A DNA stretch of 64,000 nucleotides from Escherichia phage vB_EcoM_Maryam. Made by a program: the position numbers and the translations under genes. The stretch is taken from the sequence record PQ799574.1; one strand, written 5' to 3'. Shown here in pieces: positions 2,358 through 55,983 of this stretch. Under the pieces are notes generated by a model. That model saw nothing but the letters and a program-made list of their open reading frames with translations. It was not told the DNA's origin and searched no databases. How positions within the stretch are numbered: the first letter of the stretch is position 1; each line of letters starts with the position of its first letter.

Positions 2358-4535
2358 TTAGGCCGCAAGGGCCTTCATAGTTTTAGCGATTTGGGAAACT
2401 TCATCATCACTTAAAGAGTTGCGATATCCGATGAAGTCGGAAACAATACGGAATTTCTTGGTAAACTCAGCAACCATTTTATCACTGTTTTTTGAAGCAT
2501 TATTTGATAATACATCAAAAAGATTAGTTACTGTCCAGATGTCATGACCGATGGTATCTTTTCCACCATTAAAATATACACCGCGCAATGAACTAACTAT
2601 ATTAGCGAGTCGTGTATATTCTTCAGAAACTTCATCTGTACTGAAGTACTTCATCATAAAATCTAGTTCAGGATACTTGATAATTTTATCAATATATCGT
2701 TGAGCTGAACTTGAATAACCTACATACTTATCATAATCTACATCATCAAAAGCATCTACATATAAATCACGCAAAGCTTCAAAAATACATTGGCACTGAC
2801 CGAGTTCTTTTACCTTTTTCTGTAAAAGCGGACGAATAACATAAAATTCATTAATGCCAATAAGATTAGCCATACGAATCAAAATATTCATAGATGGATG
2901 ACAAAGAGATGTAGTACCATCCATAGAGAAAATATCAGAACGATGCATATACGCTACATAACCAGTAATTTCATCTGCTTCTGATGTGAGCGTAAATAAT
3001 TCCTCTTTTTCCCATCGCCCATCTTTAATTTCAAACTTAAATGCTGTAGCAGCTTTAGGACGAGGAGCTTTACTTTTAACTACCTTTGGAATATAGCTTT
3101 TAACTAAAGCTTCAATTTCTGACAAATAATGAATGTTAACTTCATCACTTTCAAACATCGCCATAATATCAGGAAGTAAATCAATCTGCGATTCTACTTC
3201 CGGATTAATAAACAGAAGACGCTCATTGTGATGAATATTCAAAGTGTTATTAAATTCACTATCATCTAACGCGTGTGCTAATCCACGGACAATATTAACA
3301 CGATTTTTAATATTATCAATAACGATATTAATTTTTGTTGCATTAATACCAAACAGACGATAACTTGATGCAACGGCTGAAGTTTCATGACTTTGCTTAA
3401 TGCGCTTCAGTCGAGGGTCAAGATTTACTTCATACACAACTCCTGCATTACATAACTTACTATCAGGTTCAAACATGCTTTGCATCTTCTTATATGACAG
3501 ATTTTTAGTCGTAAATTTGACTGAATTACTAATCATATAATCTCGAGCAGAATACCCCATCTTCATCAATTCACGATATGTATGACGGGGAGATGTGGAT
3601 TCTTTAAATCGTTTTACATCTTCATTAAATGCTTTCTCACTGAGTTCTTTAACTCGTTCAATGATATTTTTACGAGTGCGATCATCTAGTGAAAGAGCCT
3701 CGCGAGATGGAGCAATATCAAGTGAACCCATTGGAAACTTAATGTAATTCACTTCATTGCGAATGCTTAGCCAGTTACGGTCTCTAATAACACCATCGAT
3801 AGGATAAACAATACCGCCATAGATAGCATATAATCCACCACGATCAGGCCAGTATCTTTCTGGATTTACACCATAATAATCATCAAAATCCGGAAAATAA
3901 TCAATTTCACGGTCAAGACCATTAATGATAGCCAAATCTTTGAACGGTCGCATGATATAAGAAACTTCATAAGCAAAGTTTCTAAAGTCTTTTTCTTCAA
4001 CTGGAACTACGATTTCAATACCAGTTTTATCATCTGGACCCATTTCTTTTACGAATGTAGGTTTAATCTGTGGACCATCACCATCCATGTAAGCTACATA
4101 ACCACGAATTTCACCTTTATGATACGAAGTAATACTAAACGTATCAGTATAACTAAACGGAGATTTAGAACCTAAACCAAATCCGCCAATAAAGTCATTA
4201 GATTCAGCTTTAGATGAACTGAAGTATGAATTATACAACCCAGGAGAATTATCATCACCTTGAATATCAAAATCACTCATACCCGGACCAAAATCTCGAC
4301 AAACAAATCGCGGGTCTAAACGTCCAGGAACTTGTATGATAAATTTCTCTGGATTTCCATTAAGTGCATGAGCATCAATCATGTTAGTAATCAATTCACG
4401 GACTACTGCGCGAATCTTGTTTGTATACAAATCAGACGACAGAATTTTAAATACTTTAGGAGATGCTGTGATGCTAAATGCTTTCGATTTAGAACCATTA
4501 CCAAGAATTGTTTCTTTTTCAGTGGTGATAATCAT
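2358..4535 (-). CDS. rIIA: rIIA protein (725 aa, GHKL-type ATPase fold)
   Basis: Length identical to T4 rIIA; N-terminal ATPase motifs; synteny. Confidence 0.9.
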
Positions 4536-4804: not shown

Positions 4805-6624
4805 TACTGGCTCATCCATTCTTTACGAAGGTCAGCATTATCTCCCATGAGCATTTCAAAAAGCTCTTTCCAGTTCTCAGGAAGTTTAACAACATCATAT
4901 ACTGGGTTTTGAATCATCTCACGATATTCAGATTTTTCCAAAGAGCCAAGTCCCTTAATATAACGGATGCTATGTTTAGGTAGAGCATCTTTGGCACTCT
5001 CATATTCAGCGACTGTATAAAACCATTCTTGTTTTTTACCGACCTGAGCGATGATTACAGGAGTTTTGACAAAGCGAATTCGTCCTTGCTCAAACAATTC
5101 TGGCCAATTACTAAAAAATCCAAGCAGAGAAGGATAAATGCTTCCTAGACCATCATGGTCAGCATCAGTCATAATAGCAATATTATGATAATTCAAGTTT
5201 TCAGCTTTTTCACCGAGAACTAATCCAGTGATTGCGCAAATATCAAATAGTTCTTTGTTTTTAAGCATATCAGCATATGACATACCCCAACTATTAAGAA
5301 CTTTACCACGCAATGGATAACCACCATGAAGTTCTTTATCACGAACATCAATAAGATATCCGATAGCCGAATCACCCTCAGTCAAGAAAAGAGTCGTGTC
5401 AGCATCTTTACCACAAAGATTCGCTTTAATATGTTTATGAACCTTAGCTTTAGAAGCCTTTTTAGCTGCTTTTGTTTCTGCTGCTTTTTCTGCTGCCAAT
5501 TTACGAGCCAAAGCAGCTTCAATAATCGGCATTAGAATTGCTTCATTATTTAGAATAGCACGTGAAATCTTTTTAGCATCAAGCTGAATATGACTACGGA
5601 TTTCACCAAATGGAGAAGTCAAACGCTCTTTAGTTTGAGAATCAAATCGCATGTTTTTCATATCACGAACAAACATAACGATAGTCAAACATTCTTTAAC
5701 ACGTGCTTTAGTTACATCAATTTTGAATTTACGTTTGATTTGTGGAATAAGGTCTTCACAAATATCATCCATAACACAGTCAATGTGATGGCCACCATTC
5801 TTAGTGTGAATGTTATTCACATAAGTTAATTGACGAAATCCATCCGGTGAACGACCAACCGCAATAGAACAATTTTCTTGTTCTTGAACAATAGCATGTT
5901 CATCATACTGTCGTGCATATTTCTTAAAATTGCCCTGAACCTTTTTACCATTAAAGGTAAATTGAATATCAGGATAAACAACAGCAAGTGTCTGGAGACG
6001 ATCTAGTGTAATATCAAGATAAACTTGGGACAGCTCATTAGTTTCAAATGACATAAAATCAGGAATGAAAGTAACACGTGTTCCTTTCCATTTTCCAGGA
6101 ATATCTTCCCATGATTTATTTTCCATGCCATTTGAACAACGAACTACAATATTATTTTGACCATCACCCGTTTCACCAACAAACATCACAGAAAAAATGT
6201 TTGTCAAACTAGAACCAACACCATTCATACCGCCGGTGACACGTTCTTTATCATCACCAAAGTTACCACCCGCTTTTGGAATAGTCCAAGCAGCAACTGG
6301 ACCAGGAATTTCTTCACCGGTAGGTGTTTTAACCATCGCTTGTGGAATACCACGACCGTTATCTTCAACTGTTACTTGATTGTTTTTAATAGTAACATTA
6401 ATTTTATTTGCGAATTTAAACTTAGTACGAATACCTTCATCGACTGAGTTATCGATAATTTCATCAATAAGCTTAACAAGACCAGGTACATACTGAACAC
6501 TTTCCCATTTACCAAACAGAAAGCGCTCATGCATTTCATTAGCAGAAGAGCCAATGTACATGCCACTACGCTTTTTGATATGTTCAATATCGCTCAGAAT
6601 TTTAATTTCATTCTTAATCATCAC
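4804..6624 (-). CDS. 39: DNA topoisomerase II large subunit (GyrB-like ATPase plus Toprim), uninterrupted 606 aa
   Basis: GHKL ATPase and Toprim motifs; about 605-aa fused form as in T2/T6, no gene 60 split. Confidence 0.9.
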   Translation of the reverse strand: MMIKNEIKILSDIEHIKKRSGMYIGSSANEMHERFLFGKWESVQYVPGLVKLIDEIIDNSVDEGIRTKFKFANKINVTIKNNQVTVEDNGRGIPQAMVKTPTGEEIPGPVAAWTIPKAGGNFGDDKERVTGGMNGVGSSLTNIFSVMFVGETGDGQNNIVVRCSNGMENKSWEDIPGKWKGTRVTFIPDFMSFETNELSQVYLDITLDRLQTLAVVYPDIQFTFNGKKVQGNFKKYARQYDEHAIVQEQENCSIAVGRSPDGFRQLTYVNNIHTKNGGHHIDCVMDDICEDLIPQIKRKFKIDVTKARVKECLTIVMFVRDMKNMRFDSQTKERLTSPFGEIRSHIQLDAKKISRAILNNEAILMPIIEAALARKLAAEKAAETKAAKKASKAKVHKHIKANLCGKDADTTLFLTEGDSAIGYLIDVRDKELHGGYPLRGKVLNSWGMSYADMLKNKELFDICAITGLVLGEKAENLNYHNIAIMTDADHDGLGSIYPSLLGFFSNWPELFEQGRIRFVKTPVIIAQVGKKQEWFYTVAEYESAKDALPKHSIRYIKGLGSLEKSEYREMIQNPVYDVVKLPENWKELFEMLMGDNADLRKEWMSQ

Positions 6625-16413: not shown

Positions 16414-16885
16414 TTATTTTACCTAAAACAATAGTAGGAGCATTGTCAAATTTATGAATTTTTAGCAAATTTGGATTTAAATTATTCCATAAAGAGGTAA
16501 TAAAATATGATAGCGCACTTTCGTCCGTAATTATAAATTTATTTCCTTTATCTATTTTCCAATCATATATTGAATCATATGAATAGAAGGATAACGGTTT
16601 ATTATTATAATATGCTTCAGCAACATCAATATAGTTAGATTTAGTAAATGCTTGAATTGCCATAAATGGAGAATTTTGTACAGTTTCAATAATTCCGATC
16701 TTTTTAAGTTTTATTTCAACATCTTCTGGAATTGGCATTGAAATAAAATCTTCTACTAGATACATGTTATTGTCATATCTTTTATCAATCATTACTGCTA
16801 CTGTAATTGGAACATCCTTGACAAACGCCATACTAATGCTATTGATAGACATTTCAAACAAAATTGCTTCCATAATTTTCCTCAA
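16388..16885 (-). CDS. hypothetical protein (165 aa)
   Basis: ORF only. Confidence 0.45.
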
Positions 16886-17223
16886 TCACAAGATGTAGAT
16901 GAACAACTAGAATCACAAGAACTTCCACATGAATCGCCCGTCCATACATAAACAGGAACATTTGTATCATATGAATCAGAACTAGACTGTGTTTTCTGTG
17001 CATTAGATGATGTAGTAGGTGTTGACCAGCGCCAAGGATTTTTATAATATTCTTGGGCTTCTTCATAAGTCATAGTAACTGCTTCTACTGTTCCATCTCC
17101 CATATAAACATACTCAACTACAGTTAAAGGAAGGTAGTCATTTGAAATAGGAACTACACCTTCTCCAGGAGTCGTAGAGAAAAAATCCGTAAAGAAACTT
17201 TTAAACCAATTAAAGATAAACAT
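16882..17223 (-). CDS. hypothetical protein (113 aa) with Cys/Ser-rich C-terminal tail
   Basis: C-terminus [18 protein letters not shown]. Confidence 0.45.
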
Positions 17224-17429
17224 TACAAAAAGCCTCTTTTGAATTCAACTTGTTTATCGCCATAATCATATCGAATTTCTGCATTAAATTCAACAGAACC
17301 ATCTGCGTACATCATAAATGAATGAACAACAACTTCTGTAGACCATGGTTGCAGTTCATATTTCTTCATTACATGCCGTGAAATGATAATATCTAAATCT
17401 TCATTTGGTTTAATCCAACGATTTAACAT
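17223..17429 (-). CDS. hypothetical protein (68 aa)
   Basis: RBS; consensus early promoter at 17456-17485. Confidence 0.45.
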   Translation of the reverse strand: MLNRWIKPNEDLDIIISRHVMKKYELQPWSTEVVVHSFMMYADGSVEFNAEIRYDYGDKQVEFKRGFL

Positions 17430-17455
17430 AATGCTCTCCTCTATAAGATAATTCT

Positions 17456-17485
17456 ATTATACCATACTCATTTTGGAAAGTAAAC
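17456..17485 (-). promoter_or_regulatory. early promoter (GTTTACT-N17-TATAAT)
   Basis: Perfect -10 and 17-nt spacing. Confidence 0.5.
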
Positions 17486-17490
17486 CGGTA

Positions 17491-17520
17491 AAATGAAAAA
17501 AGGACTCCCGAAGGAGTCCT
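17491..17520 (-). terminator. intrinsic terminator after soc
   Basis: 8-bp stem AGGACUCC with UUCG loop, then UUUUUUCAUUU. Confidence 0.7.
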
Positions 17521-17525
17521 TGAAA

Positions 17526-17771
17526 TTATTCACCAGTTACTTTCCACAAATCTTCGTTTGCAGTAATCCATTCAGTACGTTGATTTTCTTCATATACTGT
17601 AGAATATGCTGCTTTTTCTGAAGGGAATATCTGATAATGAGCTCCAGAAATTTTGTGAACGTCAGAATAAAGAGGGAAAGCTACAGAAATTTCCTTTCCT
17701 TCAATTTTCTTATTTCCATCTAATTTCTGCTCAAACGTTTTGATATTAACATAACCGCGAGTACTAGCCAT
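17526..17771 (-). CDS. soc: small outer capsid protein Soc
   Basis: 81-aa ORF of T4 Soc size; late promoter TATAAATA upstream; terminator downstream. Confidence 0.85.
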   Translation of the reverse strand: MASTRGYVNIKTFEQKLDGNKKIEGKEISVAFPLYSDVHKISGAHYQIFPSEKAAYSTVYEENQRTEWITANEDLWKVTGE

Positions 17772-18715: not shown

Positions 18716-18786
18716 TATTTTTCCTTTCAATTCATGAGTTAGTAGATTAATTATACAATAAATATATAAAGCAATAAGGAGGACAT

Positions 18787-25059: not shown

Positions 25060-25908
25060 TTAATCAACTGCTATTGGATGAATAGCATTAAACTTATGAA
25101 ATGCTTCTGATTTTTCTTTGCGCGAAACGCACATGCGAAGAACCTTTAATGGCTCGTCTTCTTCACCCAACGATTTTCGTTTTTCAATATTAGAAGTTTT
25201 CCAACGAGCTTGCTCTGGAAACTCTCTATTGATTTGCTCAAGCGCTCTATTATGTTTAGAATTACTACGAATTGAACTACACCCGCCAGGAGCTTGTGCT
25301 TTTCCAGATACAACCAGATATTTGAACAAGGCCAAATGCGGATAACCTTGATTAATTAAATTGAGAAATGCATACATATCTTCGCACAAATCAATTTTTC
25401 CATACCCAATTTGTTCTGTCGTAAGTTTTCCGAGGTCATACCATGTATTCGTGAATCCATATGAATTTTCACGATAATTACCCCAAGATGAAGTAATTTT
25501 AAAAATTGGTAGGCGAGCATGACCGTGATAATACCCGCAATCCATGGCATCTTCAACGTATTGAATCAATTCATAGAACTGTTCACGGGTTAATTGATTG
25601 ACTTTATCTACACAACGACGGTCATCTCTTTTTCGCATTGAACTCATACGAATAGTAGTATCATCGTCAATCATCCAGATTCGTTGACCTGCATACATAT
25701 CAGTAATTGCTTTACGAGTACCGGCAATTCCGTTTACATCATCAGGAATAGTTATAATTTTAGCTCTAGACCCATAGGCATCATAATAAGCTTTTTCTTC
25801 ATGTTCACGCACTACAATATGGGGTTCATAATCAGTCGGAAACATATCAAGGGCAGAAACTGCCCCGACACGCTGATAACTTGGAATTACGAATTGAATC
25901 ATTTCCAC
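25060..25908 (-). CDS. glycosyltransferase at the beta-gt locus (282 aa), candidate DNA glucosyltransferase
   Basis: DxD-like motif IWMIDDD; sits between uvsX and 42 where T4 has the 351-aa beta-gt. Confidence 0.5.
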   Translation of the reverse strand: MEMIQFVIPSYQRVGAVSALDMFPTDYEPHIVVREHEEKAYYDAYGSRAKIITIPDDVNGIAGTRKAITDMYAGQRIWMIDDDTTIRMSSMRKRDDRRCVDKVNQLTREQFYELIQYVEDAMDCGYYHGHARLPIFKITSSWGNYRENSYGFTNTWYDLGKLTTEQIGYGKIDLCEDMYAFLNLINQGYPHLALFKYLVVSGKAQAPGGCSSIRSNSKHNRALEQINREFPEQARWKTSNIEKRKSLGEEDEPLKVLRMCVSRKEKSEAFHKFNAIHPIAVD

Positions 25909-27862: not shown

Positions 27863-30558
27863 TCAGCCAAACAGGAAGTCTAACGAAGCTTTTTCTTCAT
27901 AGTCCATACCAGCCGATTCACACATGCCTGCAAGCGGTTTAACAAACGATTTTTGGAACAAAGTTGAGTAGTCAATCCAAGATAGTACATCAGAACGAAT
28001 TTCTTTTGGAAGTTCTGTACCCGACGGCCAAGCAATGCACTTGTCGCCAAATGGATTTCCTTCACGTAATGGAAGAACCATTACCTTATTTCCATCCAAA
28101 ATTGGAGCTACACCCAGACCACTAACAGCTCGACGATAAGTTAGCACACCACGAATATGGAACGGGCATTTAAATCCTGGCCAACCTTTATCATCATATT
28201 TCGCTATATCGTTCGCAGTTTTTACTTCAGCAATAACTTTATAGTCAAGTTGACGATATTCTTTCTCGAAGTTCTTGTAATATTCTTGGACAGACTCTTC
28301 ACCTTCCTGAAGAATACGACGAATACTTTCTTCAAGAGCTTCTTGAACTGCTTTAGGCGTTGAACTTTGCTGAGTTTCCATACCCATGATTTTTAGATGC
28401 GGTTCAGCAAAACGCTTATCTTCCATATCATATACGTTCAGAGCATAACGCTTTTTCGCTTTCCAAAATCCACCAACGCCCTTTGAACCAAGTGGAGGGC
28501 AAGAAATAGCTTCACGGTCCATATGCATCAGATGCTCGCGGTTATTCATATAATCACATAACTCACGATATGCAACATCAATCATAGGTTCCATCTTTTT
28601 CTTACCGAACTGATTCATGAATTCAACTAAATCGTTCTGCTCTTTGAATCGGTCAAGACCAACTTTTTCAATAACTTTATCTACACAAACATATACCGAA
28701 TCAGTATCACCTGCTGCAATGAAATCTTCGCCATTAGTTCCGCACACTTTATTCAGATACTCATTAATTTTACGAGCAATCCACTGAATACCAACTTGGC
28801 CGAAAATTGTGATAGCAGTAGCATTTCGCAAATCATAGTAACGGAAATGAATATTACCAAGAGCACCGTAAAGGCTGTTAATAAGAATTTTACGGTTCAG
28901 CTGATTTGTATTAGCAAGTGTAGCCGCTTTTTCACATTCTTCAATCAAACTATTGAGAACAGATTCAGTATAATTCGATAGTTCATTTAAGAAATCATCA
29001 CTGAACTTAACATATCGTTCAACTTCAGGTTTAGTTGAACAAGACCCTGCGCCTTTCATAATAATCTTTTTAATAGCTTCGGCATTCATTTCTTCAGCGA
29101 ACATTTTCTTTTTCCAATCTTTACGCTGGAAAAATACTTTAGCGATTTCCTTTGGAATGATACCTTCTTGATGCTTATCGTACATCCATCCATTCGGAGA
29201 ACAAGAATATTCATCACTCGGTTTAGGAGCTGTTCCTGCGATATATTCATGAATTGGATGAACTTTAAACTGACCACGAATAGTCTCAGGACTAATGTTA
29301 ACCTGACGAATAATGCTCGGATACAGAGACGTCAAGTCAAAACTCATAATATATCGACGAGCAATTGGTTTAGGTTCAAATACAAATGCACCCGGAAAAC
29401 TCTGTTTAACGTGCGAACCTTGTTGAGGAATAACCTTATGTTCACCTTTCAATGAGTTAAAAATAATAGCATCCCAGGTTTTAATAGGACTCATTACACC
29501 AGAAAAAGGCATTTTAGCGTAATAAGACATACTTAAAACTAGATCGATAAACCCGCGAATTTTATCAATTGCTTGAACTGATTCTACGTCAATGATGTTA
29601 TAACTAATGTATCGTTGATGATTAGTCTCACGAAGTTTATTAATAGGACCGTCGTATGGTAATTTACCTTTTTTGGTTTCATGCTGAGCAACTGATTCCA
29701 AAGAGAATGACGGCAAATTAGTAAATGCGAATTTCTTATACAAATCTAAATAATCAAGAATAGATACGCCATCAATAGAATAAATTTCTTTGCTACCGTA
29801 CATATTTTGGATAAGTTTAGATTTTACTCGACCGATTGGAGAGAAGCGTTTCATACTACGTTCACCGAGAACCATTTTAACGCGATTCATGATATACGGA
29901 ACGTCAAATCCCTCAATATTCCAACCAGTAAAAATAGCAGGTCGTTTCTGTTCCCAGAGATTGATATATTCCATGAGCATATCACGCTCATTATCGAATG
30001 GCATATAAATTACTCGGTCAAGAATTTCTTGAGGAACTTCATCACCACCTTCACAGTCAAGCTTAGCAGCTAACTTTGCATCCCATTTTGATACTGAACC
30101 ATACATTGAATTCAAAAGGTCGAAAACATAAAAACGATCATCAATTGAATCGTAATGAGTGATAGCATCAATTTCATATTCAGCTTTCATTGGGTCAGGA
30201 AATTTATCACCAGTAACCTCAATGTCACAGTTAGCTACACGAACAAATTTTCGGTCATAAACAATTTCTGAACCGTATGTATCACTGATAAAGCGAGTTT
30301 AAAATCGTTCATACCGAGAGCTTCGAGACCGATGTCTTCCATTCGTTTCATCCAATCTCGAGCATCTTTCATTGATGGAAATTTTTGAGGAGCGCAGTTT
30401 TTACCATAGATGTCTTTGTACTTTGACTCTTCCTTACAATGCCTAAACATAGTTGGAAGATATTCTACTTCACGAGTACGTTCCTTTCCATTTTCATCAA
30501 TATAACGTTCAACAATATTATTTCCGACTGTTTCAATAGAGATATAAAATTCTTTCAT
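27863..30558 (-). CDS. 43: DNA polymerase gp43 (family B), reading frame broken by an apparent 1-nt deletion near 30289
   Basis: 107-aa N-terminal ORF (30235-30558) plus 775-aa ORF (27863-30190); the frame of the large ORF stays open upstream to about 30290; fragments sum to the 898 aa of T4 gp43. Confidence 0.85.
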
Positions 30559-30606
30559 AGATATTCCTTAGTTTATAGCCCGAGTTATTAGGCTCTTGAT
30601 ATATTA

Positions 30607-30635
30607 TACTCCAAATAAGGGGCCGAAGCCCCTTT
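30607..30635 (-). other. stable UUCG hairpin in the leader of gene 43 (possible terminator or regulatory structure)
   Basis: AGGGGC-UUCG-GCCCCU; weak U-run. Confidence 0.35.
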
Positions 30636-31255: not shown

Positions 31256-31801
31256 TTACCATTCCAATGCTAGTTTTTTGAGTTGTTTCTGTTCTTTTAC
31301 GTTCTTAGTCACTTCTTTCAAAAAATCATCCGTGACTAAACCTTTTAGTTCTTTTAATACTAAAGGAAGTTTTCCATTTTTAGTAAGAATTGATTTATAG
31401 TTAATTGCATCATTTGTATTAACTTGATACCACTTAGCAAGTAACTTAATAATCAATACTTCGGTGGAATCTTCAACCAGTTTTGCCCATTTACCGTATC
31501 TTTTACCACGAGGAACTGCAGCCATTAGATAATTAAAATGAGCTTCATCACTTAAGCCTGATCCAATTAAATTCATAGCATATACAGCTGGCATGCACTC
31601 TGGAAATTGTGATAATGCATTTTCAACCATGAATTTTGAATAATCTTTTTGAGCAATAGAGCATTTAGTTTTATTATTGATAGCTCCAATTATTTCAAAA
31701 AATTCATTTTCAGCTTTTTCTTTAAAAGAATCAGCAGCGGATTGGACAGCTGTCCAATCTTTTGAATACCAAGCAAGTAGGAAAAGATTATGTATGCCCA
31801 T
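31256..31801 (-). CDS. 62: clamp-loader subunit gp62 (181 aa), 5' end possibly altered
   Basis: Position next to regA; about 6 aa shorter than T4 gp62 as I recall it; in-frame TAA directly upstream of the ATG. Confidence 0.75.
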
Positions 31802-33611: not shown

Positions 33612-34388
33612 TTATACTCTTGGACCATATATTGCTCCAACATTTTGCCACGTTGGAGAAGACCCTATAACAGCATATCCAGAATCGCCGCCATTGTATT
33701 CAGATCCTTGACCACGAATATTACATCTACCTCCTGCGGCGCCTACCTCACCACCGCTTCCGCCATTATAGATACCGTTCACGGACCCCGATCCAGGCGC
33801 ATAAAGAGTACCAGCAGTTGCGCCTGATTGCATATCAATAGATCCGCCAGGTGCACCAAACGGACGCCCACCACCACCACCAAAGGTTAATCTCATTTGT
33901 GAAAAAGGAGAATAATACCCACCGCCACCACCGCCACCACCGGCAGCAATAGCTCCGCCATTATTAATTCTTAGTCTCCCACCAATATCGTTTTGAATAC
34001 AATGACCTCCAGCTGAGCCAGGACTATTGCTACCGCCATTACCTCCACGACCATACATCGTTACGCCGTGTATATTTAACTGAACATATTCATTTGGTGT
34101 ATCTCCGTACATAAAGAATAAAGGAACATCTTTAGAATATGATACTAAATCACCTGTAATATTAAACACTATAGGTGCACTACCTGCCTCAAAACATCTA
34201 TCTCGGAACCATTGACCATTGAAGTTATGGTCTGCTCCAAGCGTGTGAATTATTTCAACAGATCGACCTATCATATTACTCATCCAAAACGGAACGCCCA
34301 TTCTTAATCTTGCGGCTGCTCCTGCCATCCAATGGTCTCCAGTCTGTGCCAATGCAGAAGTTCCTATCCACGGTCCTGCTACTGCCAT
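33612..34388 (-). CDS. 38: gp38 receptor-recognising adhesin (T2/Ox2/K3 type), 258 aa
   Basis: Poly-glycine segments flanking variable loops; GGAGG RBS before ATG at 34388; follows gene 37. Confidence 0.8.
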
Positions 34389-34398
34389 ATAAACCTCC

Positions 34399-34416
34399 AA
34401 GGGGCCGAAGCCCCTC
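34399..34416 (-). other. intercistronic UUCG hairpin between genes 37 and 38, next to the gp38 RBS
   Basis: GGGGC-UUCG-GCCCC directly upstream of GGAGG. Confidence 0.4.
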
Positions 34417-34419
34417 TTA

Positions 34420-37400
34420 TTATTTTAACAATGATTTAACTAATGCTTTAAGTTCTTCGATTTCTGATTTAAGTTCTGCAATTTCTGCAGTATGCTCATT
34501 GATTGCAGCTGTATTTAAACCAATTACACCGTTATAGTTCAAACGAAGTAAAGCTTCGCCATCAGGGTCACCTTCAACTAATTCTGGTAAAATAGCTTGA
34601 ACTTCTTGAGCAATTAAACCGGCGTTAGGTTCCCATTTCTGATTGCCTTCTTCATCTAGGCCTCGCTTCTGCATATAAGTGTAACCGTTAATTTTGGAAA
34701 GCTTCTCAGAAGCATTTTCAAATTTAACAAGGTCTTTTTTAACACGAATATCAGAACGGACATAAACATCTCGAACAAATGTGGAATAGGCATCGCTCTG
34801 TTGGACTAAATGACCAAAAGAAATAATAGCTCTTCCTTGTTCAGTCCACAAAGCACCAGTGGTATCCCAAAGACCTTCATGGAGATGGTAAGCGGACGAC
34901 CATGAAGCAATATGCATTCCATTTGCAACCATATTAATTCGCCCATCACCGCCATGAACTAATCCAGTATCATTATCACCAATAACAAGACATGGTCCAG
35001 TCCACACCGGGTCACCACCGCCAGCTGATAATCTTGCTCCGGTTTGAACCATGTTAGGAACATACAGAACTCCAGTGTGGTGGAATTCATAGATAGCTTG
35101 TGGGTCAGAACCGTTTTCCTGGTTACCTACACGAATAATACCTTGTGCCCAGTTATTAGTAATGCGACGCATACCAAAATCAACGCTAGATATGTATCCT
35201 TCATTCGTAATAGCAGATTTTCCTTTAATAATAGGATAATAACTATCATTACCAACATTACCAAAATCTACAAATATCGGAGCTTCTTGTCGCCATTGGT
35301 TTCCCCAATCGCCAGCCTGGTGCGCAGTCCATTGTGTACCGTTTATATGAAGGCGGTCTCTATTAAAATTAAATGTTCCTTGACCTTGAGGAGAAAGCGA
35401 TATTTCGCCGTTATTTGTTATGTATACACCACCCTGTGTAATGTAACTGTAAAAACCTAGACCGTTGTCGCCGCCACCTTTGCCTATATACCAGTTATTT
35501 GTACCACCTACATCACTACGGATATGTGATGAAGCACCTCCGCCAGCAGTTAAAACGAGAGCATCATTGCCTGCTGATAAAGTCAATTTACCAGTCATCG
35601 TGTCGCCTTCTTTAGAAACACGAGTAGCTATTGCATCGCGAATATTTGTGGTTTCTCCCGCAGAAGTAAACGATTTCCAAATATCTGAGAAAATATTACC
35701 ATTACGAGCAATAGTAGCTTCACCGCCGCCGACTTGAACGTTATCGGGGAAATTAACTGTACCGTCTTGATTAAAACGAGACGTATGGCCTTGTGAACCA
35801 TCTTCTTTTAAATGATGTAAAACAAATGTACCCGAATTAATTTCAGTACCTAAAGACCAAACAGCTTTACTGTTTAAAAACTTCTGTTTAACAATAGGAT
35901 AATATTTACTTACTGCGTCATCATCGATTTCCTGGAAAATAGGAGCTGCTTGAACATATTGAATATCATAACCACCAGCGCCAGCGCCGTGACCAGTAAA
36001 TTTAATATATCCGTTTGCTGCGAACGTATTGTAACTTGATTGTAAATCTGGAATAGTAACTTTACCAGTATCTAAAGCCATACTAAACGGGCGAAGTGGA
36101 CCGATATCACCATGTTTACCTTCACCATAAGCAGTTGGAATAATATGAAGACTGCCTTCTGAACGTCTAAAAATAGCTCCATAATCTGCGTTCCAAATGC
36201 GAAGAGCATTCACTGCTCCAGATGAAATTTCGCCTGTTGTGTGAACTCCTCTATTTCCAGCAGTAACACCAGATGATTCAAATGAACCGTTAACGTTCAT
36301 TTCTACTTCACCTGTTGTAAGTCTTTGAATATAGCTCATCCAGCTAGTTGCATCGGAAATTTCCATGACATTTTTGCGATTACCTTCACTAGGAATAGTA
36401 AATGTATTACCCCACACGGAAATTGTCATATTATCAACTGAACTACTACCAGTTGTGTTACCTCTAAACATCAGTGTAGAAGCATTATTTCTACCATCGA
36501 TATTAACAGAACCACCAATAACGTCAATATTACCAGGAGTAACTAACAAACCGCCATGAGTATTAATGTTTGTGGTACCCTTGCCGCGGAAATAATGATG
36601 ATAGTTACCGCCTTGATAATATCCTAAAAGAGTCTGACCATCTCCAAACGCGTTATTATCGTGATATGTCACGACAGTAGCAAGAGCATAATTTTCAGTT
36701 GGAGGAGTAGTTAAATCGGTTCCGTTAGTAGAATATCCAGCTACAAATTTTCTTAGGCTAGTTGTTTCGCTAGGACTAAATAAAAACGTTTTTGTTCCAT
36801 TATTAACGCTAAAATAATATCCATCTTGATGCCATTTAAATCCAGTATCATTATCTCCTAAAGCAATACTAGATTGTCCTAATATTGAATAATCTTTATT
36901 ACCAGGTGTTAAACCAATAGAAATTGAGTGACTTGATTTAATTCCGCCGCTCCAAGTAAATGACCAAAGATAGGTGTCAAGTCCATCACCTGCATACCAA
37001 GTTATTCCATCATTATCTTTAACTTCATGGAAAATACCAGAACCAACGGCATTACGCATGACACGAAGATGATTAATAGCAGTAGTGCTTTCAGACAATG
37101 GAACATTGTCTGCCATCGAATAGATGTCATAATCACCCGTAGATTTATTATTAGTAATGACTTTGTTGGTCAGAATTTGTGGAGACGAAATAGATTTCCA
37201 TGCTGATACTTCAGGTGAAGTAAATAGTCCACTGCCTGAAAATGCATAAGTGCTTTCGCTACCAGCGGCGTAGTCTTGAACCCTGATATTAAGTACTTGT
37301 GTAGTTAAACCATCATTAGCCGGGGCATAAATGATTCCGCGTTCGCGACTATTGTTATCGAAAAAACGAACATGCGCTGTACCTGAACTTTTTGTAATAA

Positions 37401-37731
37401 GTTCTCCGCCTTCAGTCATAATCTGCCCAGCGGAAATAATATCGCGAGTTACTCGAGCAATACCAATTAAATTAAAATTACCAGTCTGAGTGAAGACGCC
37501 ATTTAAAGTATAATCGCCAGTTTGGTTATAATTGCCTGTATGAATAACATTCCCGTCAATACTACCGCCTTTAGCAAAACCCAGATCAATAATATTTCCT
37601 TGGTCATCTTTAGTAAAAAGTACACGGTCTTTTAAGTTTATAGCCAATTCACCTTCGGCTAATACTGAAGCGGCAGGACGTGCTCCTGCAGTTTTGCTTC
37701 TTTTAAATTGTATTTGTTTTAAAGTAGCCAT
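34420..37731 (-). CDS. 37: long tail fibre distal subunit gp37 (1103 aa) with C-terminal chaperone-like domain
   Basis: Size and synteny 34-35-36-37-38; C-terminal SDIRVKKD motif and coiled coil. Confidence 0.9.
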
Positions 37732-49032: not shown

Positions 49033-50057
<1,025 letters not shown>

Positions 50058-50058
<1 letters not shown>

Positions 50059-51934
50059 TGAAACAATACCAATTTTTAATTAAAGATATCCTGGAAAATG
50101 GCTACGAAACCGATGACCGAACAGGCACAGGAACAATTGCTTTGTTCGGTACTAAATTACGCTGGGATTTAACTAAAGGTTTTCCTGCAGTAACAACTAA
50201 GAAGCTCGCCTGGAAAGCTTGCATTGCTGAGCTAATATGGTTTTTATCGGGAAGCACAAATGTCAATGATTTGCGATTAATTCAACATGATTCGTTAATT
50301 CAAGGCAAAACAGTTTGGGATGAAAATTACGAAAATCAAGCAAAAGATTTAGGATATCATAGCGGTGAACTTGGTCCAATTTATGGAAAACAGTGGCGTG
50401 ATTTTGGCGGTGTAGATCAAATTATAGAAGTTATTGATCGTATTAAAAAACTGCCAAATGATAGGCGTCAAATTGTTTCTGCGTGGAATCCAGCTGAACT
50501 TAAATATATGGCATTACCGCCTTGTCATATGTTCTATCAGTTTAATGTGCGTAATGGCTATTTGGATTTGCAGTGGTATCAACGATCAGTAGATGTTTTC
50601 TTGGGTTAATTGAGGCCTGAGTATAAGGTGACTTATACTTGTAATCTATCTAAACGGGGAACCTCTCTAGTAGACAATCCCGTGCTAAATTGTAGGACTG
50701 CCCTTTAATAAATACTTCTATATTTAAAGAGGTATTTATGAAAAGCGGAATTTATCAGATTAAAAATACTTTAAACAATAAAGTATATGTAGGAAGTGCT
50801 AAAGATTTTGAAAAGAGATGGAAGAGGCATTTTAAAGATTTAGAAAAAGGATGCCATTCTTCTATAAAGCTTCAGAGGTCTTTTAACAAACATGGTAATG
50901 TGTTTGAATGTTCTATTTTGGAAGAAATTCCATATGAGAAAGATTTGATTATTGAACGAGAAAATTTTTGGATTAAAGAGCTTAATTCTAAAATTAATGG
51001 ATACAATATTGCTGATGCAACGTTTGGTGATACATGTTCTACGCATCCATTAAAAGAAGAAATTATTAAGAAACGTTCTGAAACTGTTAAAGCTAAGATG
51101 CTTAAACTTGGACCTGATGGTCGGAAAGCTCTTTACAGTAAACCCGGAAGTAAAAACGGGCGTTGGAATCCAGAAACCCATAAGTTTTGTAAGTGCGGTG
51201 TTCGCATACAAACTTCTGCTTATACTTGTAGTAAATGCAGAAATCGTTCAGGTGAAAATAATTCATTCTTTAATCATAAGCATTCAGACATAACTAAATC
51301 TAAAATATCAGAAAAGATGAAAGGTAAAAAGCCTAGTAATATTAAAAAGATTTCATGTGATGGGGTTATTTTTGATTGTGCAGCAGATGCAGCTAGACAT
51401 TTTAAAATTTCGTCTGGATTAGTTACTTATCGTGTAAAATCTGATAAATGGAATTGGTTCTACATAAATGCCTAACGACTATCCCTTTGGGGAGTAGGGT
51501 CAAGTGACTCGAAACGGTAGACAACTTGCTTTAACAAGTTGGAGATATAGTCTGATCTGCATGGTGACATGCAGCTGGATATAATTCCGGGGTAAGATTA
51601 ACGACCTTATCTGAACATAATGCTTCCATTTAATATTGCATCATATGCTGCGTTAGTTCATATTGTAGCTAAGATATGTAATCTTATTCCGGGAGATTTG
51701 ATATTTTCTGGCGGTAATACTCATATCTATATGAATCACGTAGAACAATGTAAAGAAATTTTGCGTCGTGAACCTATGGATTTATGCGAATTACAATTAA
51801 AATTTCCAGATGAATTTGATGAATGGAACACAGAATCGCAGGTATTTTGGTTGAGTCAATTTGCAAAGCCTCATAATTTTGTTCTTAACAACTATGAATC
51901 ACATCCTCCTATTAAAGGAAAGATGGCGGTGTAA
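50058..51934 (+). CDS. td: thymidylate synthase, split by a group I intron (exon 1 50058-50606, exon 2 51623-51934; 286 aa spliced)
   Basis: Exon 1 ends ...VDVFLG and exon 2 continues LPFNIASYA... in frame; spliced length equals T4 TS. Confidence 0.9.
50607..51622 (+). mobile_element. td group I self-splicing intron (1016 nt) carrying the I-TevI homing endonuclease ORF
   Basis: Intron starts UAAUUGAGGCCUGAGUAUAAGG and ends ...GAACAUAAUG between td exons; 1016 nt as in T4. Confidence 0.85.
50738..51475 (+). CDS. I-TevI GIY-YIG homing endonuclease (245 aa), intron-encoded
   Basis: GIYQIKN...YVGSA motif; zinc finger; inside the td intron. Confidence 0.9.
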   Translation: MKSGIYQIKNTLNNKVYVGSAKDFEKRWKRHFKDLEKGCHSSIKLQRSFNKHGNVFECSILEEIPYEKDLIIERENFWIKELNSKINGYNIADATFGDTCSTHPLKEEIIKKRSETVKAKMLKLGPDGRKALYSKPGSKNGRWNPETHKFCKCGVRIQTSAYTCSKCRNRSGENNSFFNHKHSDITKSKISEKMKGKKPSNIKKISCDGVIFDCAADAARHFKISSGLVTYRVKSDKWNWFYINA

Positions 51935-51954
51935 TTTTATTATTGCGAGGATAT

Positions 51955-52218
51955 ATGATTTTACGATTTAAAGATACTTCTGGTGTAGTTCTTTTTACAC
52001 TTCCTAATCCAAGTGAGTTAGAAGTTCCAGGACCAAATCAGCCTATTATCATTTATGGCAAAAAATATTATACTCATAAAATGACTCGTGAGTATTTTGA
52101 TAATAAAATTTCCACAGTTAAAACTTCTTCTGACTGTTACTACGATATTACTGTTTTAACGGAAGAACAATATGAACACTTACAACCGCGCAGGCCGTAT
52201 ATGCCGAGTAGTGAATAA
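51955..52218 (+). CDS. hypothetical protein (87 aa)
   Basis: ATG with GCGAGGA RBS (track ORF starts at TTG). Confidence 0.4.
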
Positions 52219-52498
52219 ATATAAATCCGACTTTGATGTTAATATTCACCGTGGTACATTTTGGGGAAATTACGTCGGTAAAGATGCTGGCAGCCGGGAG
52301 GCTGCCATTGAATTATTCAAAAAAGATTTTATACGTCGAATTAAATCCGGAGAAATAACTAAAGCACATTTAGAGCCTTTACGTGGAATGAGGCTAGGAT
52401 GCACATGTAAACCAAAGCCGTGTCATGGTGATATAATAGCTCATATAGTTAACCGATTGTTTAAAGACGATTTTCAAGTTGAGGACTTATGCAATTAA
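52172..52498 (+). CDS. hypothetical protein (108 aa)
   Basis: ORF overlapping the nrdA start. Confidence 0.4.
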
Positions 52499-54753
52499 TT
52501 AATGTTATCAAAAGTAGTGGTGTTTCTCAGAGCTTTGACCCACAAAAAATTATTAAAGTTTTATCTTGGGCAGCTGAAGGAACATCAGTAGATCCTTATG
52601 AATTATATGAAAATATTAAATCTTATCTCCGTGATGGAATGACAACTGATGATATTCAGACTATTGTCATTAAGGCCGCTGCGAATTCTATTTCGGTTGA
52701 AGAACCTGATTATCAATATGTAGCTGCACGCTGTTTAATGTTTGCTCTTCGTAAGCATGTTTATGGGCAGTATGAACCACGTTCATTTATTGACCATATT
52801 TCTTACTGTGTAAATGAAGGTAAATATGACCCTGAATTATTGTCAAAATATTCAGCAGAAGAAATTACATTTTTAGAATCAAAAATTAAGCACGAGCGGG
52901 ATATGGAATTTACTTATTCCGGGGCGATGCAATTAAAAGAAAAATATCTCGTTAAAGATAAAACCACTGGTCAAATTTATGAAACTCCACAGTTTGCATT
53001 TATGACTATTGGAATGGCATTGCATCAAGATGAACCTGTTGACAGATTAAAACATGTTATTCGTTTTTATGAAGCAGTATCTACTCGACAGATTTCATTG
53101 CCAACTCCTATTATGGCTGGTTGTCGTACTCCGACTCGACAGTTTAGTTCATGTGTTGTTATTGAGGCAGGTGATTCGCTGAAGTCTATCAATAAGGCTT
53201 CCGCTTCGATTGTTGAATATATCTCTAAACGCGCTGGAATTGGTATTAACGTTGGTATGATTCGTGCCGAAGGTTCTAAGATTGGCATGGGTGAAGTACG
53301 CCATACTGGGGTTATTCCTTTTTGGAAACATTTTCAGACTGCTGTTAAATCATGCTCACAGGGTGGAATTCGTGGCGGCGCTGCTACTGCTTATTATCCT
53401 ATTTGGCATTTGGAAGTTGAAAATCTTCTCGTTTTGAAAAATAACAAAGGTGTAGAAGAAAACCGCATTCGTCATATGGATTATGGTGTTCAGCTGAATG
53501 ATTTGATGATGGAACGATTCGGAAAGAACGATTACATTACTTTGTTCAGTCCGCATGAAATGGGTGGCGAGCTTTATTATTCTTATTTTAAAGACCAAGA
53601 CCGTTTCCGTGAATTATACGAAGCAGCAGAAAAAGACCCTAATATTCGTAAAAAGCGTATTAAAGCCCGTGAACTATTTGAATTGCTCATGACTGAACGT
53701 TCAGGAACAGCAAGGATTTATGTACAGTTCATTGATAATACGAATAACTATACTCCGTTTATTCGTGAAAAGGCACCTATTCGTCAGAGTAACTTGTGCT
53801 GTGAAATTGCTATTCCAACAAATGATGTGAATAGTCCTGATGCTGAAATTGGCTTGTGCACGTTATCTGCATTTGTGTTGGATAACTTCGATTGGCAAGA
53901 CCAAGATAAAATTAATGAATTGGCAGAAGTTCAAGTTCGTGCTCTTGATAATCTTTTGGATTACCAAGGATATCCAGTTCCTGAAGCAGAAAAAGCTAAA
54001 AAGCGTCGTAACCTCGGTGTAGGTGTTACTAACTATGCAGCTTGGCTGGCAAGTAACTTTGCTTCTTATGAAGATGCTAACGATTTAACACATGAACTAT
54101 TTGAGAGATTACAGTATGGACTCATTAAAGCATCCATTAAGCTCGCCAAAGAAAAAGGACCTTGCGAATATTATTCAGACACTCGTTGGTCTCGAGGCGA
54201 ATTACCTATCGACTGGTACAATAAAAAGATTGACCAAATCGCAGCTCCAAAATACGTTTGTGACTGGTCGTCGCTGCGGGAAGACCTTAAGCTCTTTGGC
54301 ATCCGTAATAGCACATTATCAGCACTTATGCCATGTGAGTCATCTTCCCAAGTTTCTAACAGTACAAACGGTATCGAGCCTCCACGTGGACCAGTCTCTG
54401 TTAAAGAATCAAAAGAGGGCTCCTTTAATCAAGTCGTGCCCAATATTGAGCATAACATAGACCTCTATGATTATACATGGAAATTAGCTAAGAAAGGTAA
54501 TAAACCTTATCTTACGCAGGTAGCTATTATGCTGAAATGGGTGTGTCAATCAGCTTCAGCGAATACATACTATGACCCGCAGATTTTTCCAAAAGGAAAG
54601 GTTCCAATGTCAATAATGATTGATGACATGCTATACGGATGGTATTATGGCATTAAAAATTTCTATTATCATAATACCCGTGATGGTTCTGGTACTGATG
54701 ATTATGAAATAGAAACTCCAAAAGCTGAAGATTGTTCATCCTGTAAATTATGA
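52489..54753 (+). CDS. nrdA: ribonucleotide reductase large subunit (754 aa)
   Basis: Length identical to T4 NrdA; ATP-cone N-terminus. Confidence 0.9.
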   Translation: MQLINVIKSSGVSQSFDPQKIIKVLSWAAEGTSVDPYELYENIKSYLRDGMTTDDIQTIVIKAAANSISVEEPDYQYVAARCLMFALRKHVYGQYEPRSFIDHISYCVNEGKYDPELLSKYSAEEITFLESKIKHERDMEFTYSGAMQLKEKYLVKDKTTGQIYETPQFAFMTIGMALHQDEPVDRLKHVIRFYEAVSTRQISLPTPIMAGCRTPTRQFSSCVVIEAGDSLKSINKASASIVEYISKRAGIGINVGMIRAEGSKIGMGEVRHTGVIPFWKHFQTAVKSCSQGGIRGGAATAYYPIWHLEVENLLVLKNNKGVEENRIRHMDYGVQLNDLMMERFGKNDYITLFSPHEMGGELYYSYFKDQDRFRELYEAAEKDPNIRKKRIKARELFELLMTERSGTARIYVQFIDNTNNYTPFIREKAPIRQSNLCCEIAIPTNDVNSPDAEIGLCTLSAFVLDNFDWQDQDKINELAEVQVRALDNLLDYQGYPVPEAEKAKKRRNLGVGVTNYAAWLASNFASYEDANDLTHELFERLQYGLIKASIKLAKEKGPCEYYSDTRWSRGELPIDWYNKKIDQIAAPKYVCDWSSLREDLKLFGIRNSTLSALMPCESSSQVSNSTNGIEPPRGPVSVKESKEGSFNQVVPNIEHNIDLYDYTWKLAKKGNKPYLTQVAIMLKWVCQSASANTYYDPQIFPKGKVPMSIMIDDMLYGWYYGIKNFYYHNTRDGSGTDDYEIETPKAEDCSSCKL

Positions 54754-54804
54754 TATAATTTGACTCACGGACGAGTCACTATCTATTAACTAAGCGGAAA
54801 ATTT

Positions 54805-55983
54805 ATGAGCACAGTTTTTAATACAAATCCAGTTGATGTTTTAAAAGAACCTATGTTTTTTGGTTCAGGTCTTGGTATTGCGCGTTATGATATTCAACGG
54901 CATCGAGTATTTGAAGAACTTACAGAGAAGTCCTTATCATTTTTCTGGCGCCCGGAAGAAGTAAACTTAATGATGGATGCTGCACAGTTTAATAAGCTTC
55001 CTCAGTATCAGCAAAATATTTTTACTAATAATCTGAAATATCAATCACTTTTGGATAGCATTCAGGGTCGTGCGCCGTCTGCTGTACTTATGTCATTAAT
55101 TTCAGACCCAAGTCTTGACACATGGGTTGCTACATGGACTTTTAGTGAAACTATTCACAGCCGTTCATATACACATATCATGCGAAATCTTTATACTGAT
55201 CCATCGAAGGTATTTGATGAAATTGTATTAGATGAAGCTATTATGAAACGTGCTGAATCCATTGGACGTTATTATGATGATGTTCTGATTAAAACTCGTT
55301 ATTGGGAAAACGCTAAAGCTGATATCGAATACCAAAAAGAAATTAATGCAGACGAAGACGTTATTGAAGATGCTATTGAGCATGAGACATATTGGAAGCG
55401 TGAGCTAATGAAATCTCTTTACCTCTGTTTGCATGTAATCAACGCATTGGAAGCTATTCGTTTTTATGTATCTTTCGCATGTACCTTTAACTTCCATAAA
55501 AACATGGAAATCATGGAAGGTAATGCCAAGATTATGAAGTTCATTGCACGTGATGAGCAGCTTCACCTTAAAGGCACCCAATATATTATTCGTCAACTTC
55601 AGCTTGGCACTGATGGTGATGAATGGGTTAAAATTGCTCAAGAGTGTGAACAAGAAGCAGTTGATATTTTCATGGAAGTTAACCGCCAAGAAAAAGATTG
55701 GGCAGTTCATTTATTTAAAGATGGCGATGTTCCTGGATTAAATACAAATAGCATGTGGAGCTTTATTGATTACTTAACTGTATCTCGTATGAAACAGTGC
55801 GGTCTTCCATGCCCAATTACCGATGCTCCGGTTAAACATCCATATCCTTGGATTCGTGAATATCTTAATTCTGATAATGTTCAATCCGCGCCACAAGAAG
55901 TAGAACTGTCATCTTACCTTGTTGCGCAGATTGATAATGATGTTGATGATAAAGTTATGATGAGTTTTAAAAAATATTTTTAA
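54805..55983 (+). CDS. nrdB: ribonucleotide reductase small subunit (392 aa), no intron
   Basis: Continuous ORF; ferritin-like diiron motifs; synteny. Confidence 0.9.
   Translation: MSTVFNTNPVDVLKEPMFFGSGLGIARYDIQRHRVFEELTEKSLSFFWRPEEVNLMMDAAQFNKLPQYQQNIFTNNLKYQSLLDSIQGRAPSAVLMSLISDPSLDTWVATWTFSETIHSRSYTHIMRNLYTDPSKVFDEIVLDEAIMKRAESIGRYYDDVLIKTRYWENAKADIEYQKEINADEDVIEDAIEHETYWKRELMKSLYLCLHVINALEAIRFYVSFACTFNFHKNMEIMEGNAKIMKFIARDEQLHLKGTQYIIRQLQLGTDGDEWVKIAQECEQEAVDIFMEVNRQEKDWAVHLFKDGDVPGLNTNSMWSFIDYLTVSRMKQCGLPCPITDAPVKHPYPWIREYLNSDNVQSAPQEVELSSYLVAQIDNDVDDKVMMSFKKYF

Follow-up and report, generated by a model that had tools for sequence, protein, structure and literature searches.

Background

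The closest described counterparts of the locus studied here are the intact gene 43 copies of Tequatrovirus phages such as RB51, KRT47, wV7 and T4, which encode the family B polymerase gp43 and lie between imm.1/43.1 and regA. Amber (DNA-negative) null mutants of T4 gene 43 are expected to carry out no phage DNA synthesis without suppression or complementation. T4 encodes all proteins that are essential for its own DNA replication (PMC3012046). The operator of gene 43 has been described and gp43 represses its own translation (PMC3014915), and residue D112 of the enzyme is essential for the exonuclease (PMC2018640).

Interrupted versions of gene 43 are also known. In the Aeromonas phages 25 and 44RR the gene is split into 43A and 43B (PMC2988022), where an insertion, either an untranslated segment or a seg endonuclease gene, separates two parts that are both complete and whose products assemble. 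Programmed -1 ribosomal frameshifting, on overlapping frames of which the downstream one is at -1, occurs in E. coli dnaX and in the IS3/IS911 transposases.

Here we describe gene 43 in a 64-kb stretch of DNA (the window) of Escherichia phage vB_EcoM_Maryam (PQ799574.1), a T-even phage of the genus Tequatrovirus. Like phages 25 and 44RR (PMC2988022) the window has its polymerase coding sequence in two ORFs, like the T4 ambers it has a premature termination in an essential replication gene, and like dnaX and IS3/IS911 it has two overlapping frames of which the second lies at -1, with one heptamer of the required pattern in the overlap. Compared to the intact Tequatrovirus genes, which have equal length save one base, the A at nucleotide 269 is missing and the frame is broken; compared to 43A/43B, the window loses 34 residues, among them exonuclease motif I, and has no translation start signal for its second part. 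The ambers are conditional nonsense mutants propagated on suppressor hosts, whereas the window carries a frameshift in a wild-type-like T6/RB51-type background. Unlike dnaX and IS3/IS911, the window has slippery motifs of weak classes, lacks a Shine-Dalgarno or structural stimulator and shares its frameshift with no relative, and its heptamer also occurs in the intact relatives, in another reading frame. To our knowledge there is no suppressor system, and no recorded strain, for such a gene 43 frameshift.

Gene 43 reading frames

Gene 43 is located on the minus strand of the window, from an ATG at 30558 to a stop codon at 27865-27863, and appears in the ORF listing as a 107-aa ORF (30235-30558) and a 775-aa ORF (27863-30190). 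Its features are given below in window coordinates.

30292-30558, minus strand: codons 1-89 of gene 43 in the native frame, ATG at 30558-30556; 100% identical to residues 1-89 of T4 gp43 (tblastn)
30290-30291, minus strand: missing-base site, the two remaining Ts of the Tyr90 codon T(A)T; sole gap relative to KRT47, RB51 and a panel of eight relatives
30235-30291, minus strand: out-of-frame tail of the 107-aa ORF, 18 foreign codons (LSVIHTVQKLFMTENLFV) followed by TAG at 30237-30235
27863-30289, minus strand: codons 91-898 of gene 43 and the stop codon, in frame -1 as counted from the ATG at 30558, without further lesions
30218-30226, minus strand: codons D112-I113-E114 of exonuclease motif I, located between the break and the first ATG (30190) of the 775-aa ORF
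27863-30190, minus strand: 775-aa ORF that starts at Met124 and misses the first part of the exonuclease domain

The earlier note had described the 107-aa ORF as ending in 18 out-of-frame residues and being followed by the 775-aa ORF, and these coordinates were borne out. In the downstream frame, residues 90-898 were 99.5% identical to T4 with zero stops (tblastn), and the frame aligned to the T4 polymerase chain 9e5y_A (PDB, 898 residues) from residue 90 to residue 898. The two parts indeed add up to a full-length enzyme once one base is restored (89 + 809 = 898), as had been proposed, and together the frames are collinear end to end with the T4 polymerase. Both DNA_pol_B_exo1 (PF03104, 75 bits) and DNA_pol_B (PF00136, 88.8 bits) were found in the downstream frame above the Pfam cut-off of 23. 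The downstream frame was said to stay open to about 30290; it is open, but the limit lies further upstream, at 30298, where it is bounded by an in-frame TAA (30301-30299).

Neither of the two ATG-initiated products contains D112 or E114, as residues 90-123 are encoded by neither of them. In line with this, the DNA_pol_B_exo1 match within the 775-aa ORF covers only profile positions 138-242 of 242. A GGAG-like element or Shine-Dalgarno sequence was not found in TAAATTTCCTGACCCAATG, the stretch upstream of the ATG at 30190. A single uninterrupted frame for a full-length gp43 that includes exonuclease motif I is absent, the break being at codon 90. The break precedes the D-I-E motif (D112-I-E114, 30226-30218), in agreement with the suggestion in the earlier note that no functional polymerase is encoded. 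As written, the window encodes no intact gp43: ribosomes starting at the usual ATG would stop once 89 native and 18 foreign residues have been added, without yielding a functional polymerase.

The missing base

The one-base deletion at Tyr90 precedes exonuclease motif I and does not represent a chance pattern but one defined indel. In a MAFFT alignment with the gene 43 sequences of KRT47 and RB51, the gap was located between 30291 and 30290, inside the interval 30288-30291 that had been indicated beforehand. The absent A is gene nucleotide 269, the middle position of the Tyr90 codon TAT (GCTTATATCAG becoming GCTTTATCAG). The ATC that was expected at codon 91 is found in the closest relatives; T4 itself reads ATA. 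The gene 43 region measures 2,902 nt in all 40 relatives listed against 2,901 in the window. The alignment to relatives that had been proposed as a check could have revealed phages with the same nucleotide count and an intact frame; instead, the relatives carry the extra base.

The lost A was a lone base with a T on either side (TTATAT to TTTAT), outside any homopolymer, which weakens the idea of an error in an A/T run. Moreover, all homopolymer runs in gene 43 (18 of 18, counting A/T runs of at least 5 and G/C runs of at least 4) are intact. We therefore rejected a homopolymer run-length error as the source of the deletion, given the TTATAT setting of the lost A and these 18 intact runs.

State of the repaired gene

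Restoring the A yields a gene of 2,697 nt, corresponding to 898 aa and a stop codon. The repaired product is identical to RB51 gp43, with 20 synonymous and 0 nonsynonymous codon differences between the genes, and the comparison to T4 gave 62 synonymous and 3 nonsynonymous differences (protein identity 99.5-99.7%). Similarly, 8 of the 8 differences from KRT47 past the break are synonymous. At the nucleotide level, Shigella phage KRT47 shares 99.6% identity with the window across the gene 43 region; for RB51, RB68 and wV7 the value is about 99%. The region in front of the gene is intact as well.

30559-30628, minus strand: stretch in front of gene 43 that holds the translational operator hairpin (GAGCC-UAAUAACUC-GGGCU) and the ribosome-binding site, intact

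The 70 nt 5' of the gene 43 ATG are 100% identical to those of T4 and RB51. Between positions 25300 and 31776 we counted five differences in 6.5 kb that are private to the window relative to the eight relatives; the deletion is the sole private indel in this region and, within this panel, the sole private change within gene 43.

An old or decaying pseudogene was rejected, there being one lesion and nonsynonymous to synonymous ratios of 0/20 (RB51) and 3/62 (T4). Because the repaired protein is identical to RB51 gp43, the allele must be extremely young if it is real. Judged from these codon comparisons, the lesion is either extremely young or not real.

Search for the deletion in other genomes

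We searched for the deletion with a 40-mer centred such that every 28-base seed must cross it, and found no match in 50,697 GenBank phage records; the repaired 41-mer matched 466 GenBank phage records, 108 of which were identical across all 41 bases. The exact deleted 28-mer had no match in IMG/VR, the GTDB genomes or the JGI metagenomes, and both the 107-aa and the 775-aa product were unrecorded in a gene-position index of public assemblies (153 billion positions). The strain itself was equally hard to find elsewhere: a window-specific 46-mer from the start of gene 43 had no match in IMG/VR, the exact gp37 had none in a collection of 15 billion proteins, and a match to the whole window was lacking among GenBank phage records, complete E. 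coli genomes and plasmids. Phage ECML-134, in which the site is annotated as 'hypothetical protein', was considered as a precedent for a broken gene 43 and rejected, the gene being an intact 2,697-nt ORF.

Quality of the record and genome context

According to a blastn map to T4, the left part of the window corresponds to T4 166552 through 168903/1 to 30862 and holds ndd, denB, rIIB, rIIA, 39, dda, 61, 41, uvsX, 42, 43, regA and 62, while the right part corresponds to T4 162031 down to 130105, inverted, and holds arn, asiA, t, 38-34, rnh, 32, td, nrdA/B and onward to gene 31. When about 100 T4 proteins were compared to the window (tblastn), about 90 had a counterpart, and gene 43 alone was frameshifted; the other genes that were flagged are cut by the window end or by the junction described below, or are variable (37, 38 and the fused 39/60). 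A generally noisy assembly was rejected in view of the roughly 90 other intact genes and the low density of private differences.

Several features of the T4 genome are missing or different in the window. T4 dam has no counterpart, T4 16846-17625 being absent between gene 56 and the gene 61 region (window 18755-18776), and segF, segA, mobE, nrdB.1, 60.1 and the T4-type b-gt are absent too; a 282-aa ORF at 25060-25908 stands where b-gt would be. At window 5139-5204, T4 2794-3910 is absent (60.1, mobA and the 3' part of gene 60 including the 50-nt translational bypass), so that a single topoisomerase subunit gene seems to combine genes 60 and 39, as it does in phages that lack the mobA insertion. 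The T4 nrdB group I intron (about T4 138458-139057) is absent (window 54749-55481). The td region (50057-54749) is contiguous with T4 across the td intron and I-TevI, and this intron appears to be present. SegG is present and 99.5% identical to T4. In the stretch 33612-37731 (minus strand), gp37 (1,103 aa) is just 34% identical to T4 gp37, T4 gp38 has no match in the window, and a 262-aa ORF at 33612-34400 matches 'receptor-recognizing protein' genes on two E. coli chromosomes (84-90%), which indicates a putative T2/T6-type adhesin.

An inverted join next to gene 43

We also found a second anomaly close to gene 43, an inverted junction that the earlier note did not mention.

31776-31777: blunt inverted join between gene 62 on the minus strand, present from codon 15, and arn.2 on the plus strand, present from about codon 48

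On the blastn map this join connects T4 coordinate 30862 to 162031, with the orientation reversed. Gene 62 of wV7 is homologous up to 31776 and arn.2 of vB_Eco_CP and T4 from 31777 onward, and a base-level comparison with wV7 and vB_Eco_CP revealed no microhomology at 31776/31777. A 6-nt BLAST overlap at the join was rejected as microhomology, as it reflects extension over mismatches and the join is blunt. The junction sequence had no match in IMG/VR, the GTDB genomes, the JGI metagenomes or the GenBank phages.

The join is located 1.5 kb from the deletion and truncates both arn.2 and gene 62, which encodes an essential clamp loader. On the circular map it corresponds to inverting either about 38 kb or the complementary 131 kb, in which case a second junction would be expected about 4.5 kb beyond the left end of the window. 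It looks like the product of mis-joined segments or of a very large inversion, and most simply like two segments abutted in the wrong orientation. Whichever way the join arose, the record as written holds two independent lethal lesions inside 1.5 kb, with every other gene checked intact. The join lowers the trust that can be placed in single bases and in the large-scale order of the record.

A 181-aa ORF at 31256-31801 (minus strand) spans the join and would encode a chimeric gp62 in which eight foreign residues (MGIHNLFL) are followed by LAWYSKDW and onward. Its ATG at 31801 lies within antisense arn.2 with a GGAG 6 nt upstream, and the exact chimeric protein had no match in the collection of 15 billion proteins. 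Codon 130 of gp62 (31430-31432, minus strand) reads TGG (Trp), compared to CGT in wV7 and likewise Arg in T4 (R130W). The first-position change in this codon (31432) is private relative to all eight panel relatives, and compared to wV7, what is left of gene 62 has no nonsynonymous difference other than R130W.

Discussion

The most likely explanation, inferred with fair confidence, is that the record is at fault and that the missing A is not a property of a replicating phage. A base-call, consensus, polishing or editing error may have removed the base, perhaps in connection with weak support for the sequence close to an assembly break. In that case the actual phage would have an ordinary intact gene 43, with a product identical to RB51 gp43. 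Since gp43 is an essential phage-encoded part of the replisome, a null allele of gene 43 presumably cannot be the consensus of a propagating stock. A record defect is further favoured by the lack of decay past the break, the intact operator and ribosome-binding site, the uniqueness of the deletion and the presence of a second anomaly nearby. The site outside a homopolymer and the high base quality elsewhere argue against it, in that a run-length error typical of a sequencing platform would be ill-fitting here; the non-homopolymer site is the strongest objection to a simple platform error. Base-calling of glucosyl-hydroxymethylcytosine DNA on Nanopore can yield indels outside homopolymers. Of the three origins proposed in the earlier note (an error, a lethal or conditional mutation, an engineered lesion), the analysis narrows the choice, the first being the most likely in the form of a defect of the record.

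The main competing explanation, which we consider less likely, is that the deletion is real and constitutes a very recent frameshift null of gene 43 in a genome that does not replicate autonomously. Such a genome could be a defective variant in a mixed population, an assembly from environmental DNA, or a laboratory or engineered mutant that receives gp43 in trans. The same high base-level quality and a lesion that is not of the run-length type speak for this explanation, and the truncation of gene 62, which belongs to the same replication gene cluster and also has the private R130W change in its product, could mean that the genome is truly defective or engineered. Nevertheless, two independent lethal lesions amid about 90 other undecayed genes would be hard to maintain in nature, the identity of the repaired protein to RB51 gp43 would leave such an allele extremely little time, and the deletion was found in no other assembly. 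Engineering scars, for instance cassettes or restriction sites, are not visible around the site.

It is very improbable that the deletion is real and is tolerated through a ribosomal -1 shift within 30298-30237, with the loss of autogenous repression boosting the yield. This 61-nt zone, in which a -1 shift restores the frame, holds one heptamer of the X_XXY_YYZ type.

30244-30250, minus strand: A_AAT_TTG, the only X_XXY_YYZ heptamer in the 61-nt zone, a chance motif

A -1 shift at this A_AAU_UUG (30250-30244) would give a gp43 with about 15 altered residues. The deletion moreover turns CUUAUA into CUUUA, and a shift at the resulting C_UUU_A, with the Leu-tRNA slipping from UUA to UUU, would produce a gp43 that differs only by Y90L. 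A shortage of active gp43 would, by inference from the known autorepression (PMC3014915), derepress the mRNA. The two slippery candidates, A_AAT_TTG and U_UUA, both belong to classes that are weak in E. coli, where unstimulated Z_ZZN tetramers shift at about 0.15% (background 0.11%), U_UUA exceeds background only 1.8-3.6-fold when a strong pseudoknot is present, and unstimulated heptamers stay within about 10 times their background of 0.055% (PMC4066793). A stimulatory structure was not found, the downstream 70-nt folds having z-scores of -0.10 (after the heptamer) and +1.17 relative to shuffled sequences. The expected yield of slippage is well under 1% of normal, and with autorepression lost it would still fall far short of normal. 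A restart at Met124 is not usable either, as it would lack a Shine-Dalgarno sequence and its product would miss D112, E114 and the first part of the exonuclease domain. A_AAT_TTG and all surrounding bases are identical in the intact genes of KRT47, RB51 and T4, so nothing here has evolved for this purpose, and the two-frame arrangement is conserved in no relative (0 deleted in 50,697 records, 466 intact). Programmed frameshifting as an evolved feature was rejected for want of a window-specific slippery site, a stimulator or conservation.

Still more far-fetched is the combination in which the deletion and the join are both real and the phage is viable by means of slippage at CUUUA (Y90L), lost autorepression and the chimeric 181-aa gp62; if true, this would mean that a T-even phage can live despite a frameshifted replicase and an inverted segment of about 38 kb. 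A natural two-piece polymerase, assembled into an active enzyme from the 107-aa and 775-aa products, has a negligible probability: split gene 43 variants do exist and their products co-purify with polymerase activity (PMC2988022), but here the catalytic residues D112 and E114 are, with the rest of residues 90-123, in neither product, the 775-aa ORF has no ribosome-binding site, and the split is a 1-nt deletion instead of an inserted intercistronic segment and is shared by no relative. The absence of residues 90-123 from both products excludes such an enzyme and effectively refutes a split gene of the 43A/43B type.

If the missing A is an artefact, the record misannotates or loses the replicative polymerase and a correction is needed. 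If the deletion is real, it is a lethal null of a well-understood gene that would be useful merely as a strain marker. Under either origin, a record defect or a null allele, nothing new is implied on T4-type polymerases; a viable phage rescued by slippage would hold lessons on recoding and on the minimal gp43 need of T-even phages.
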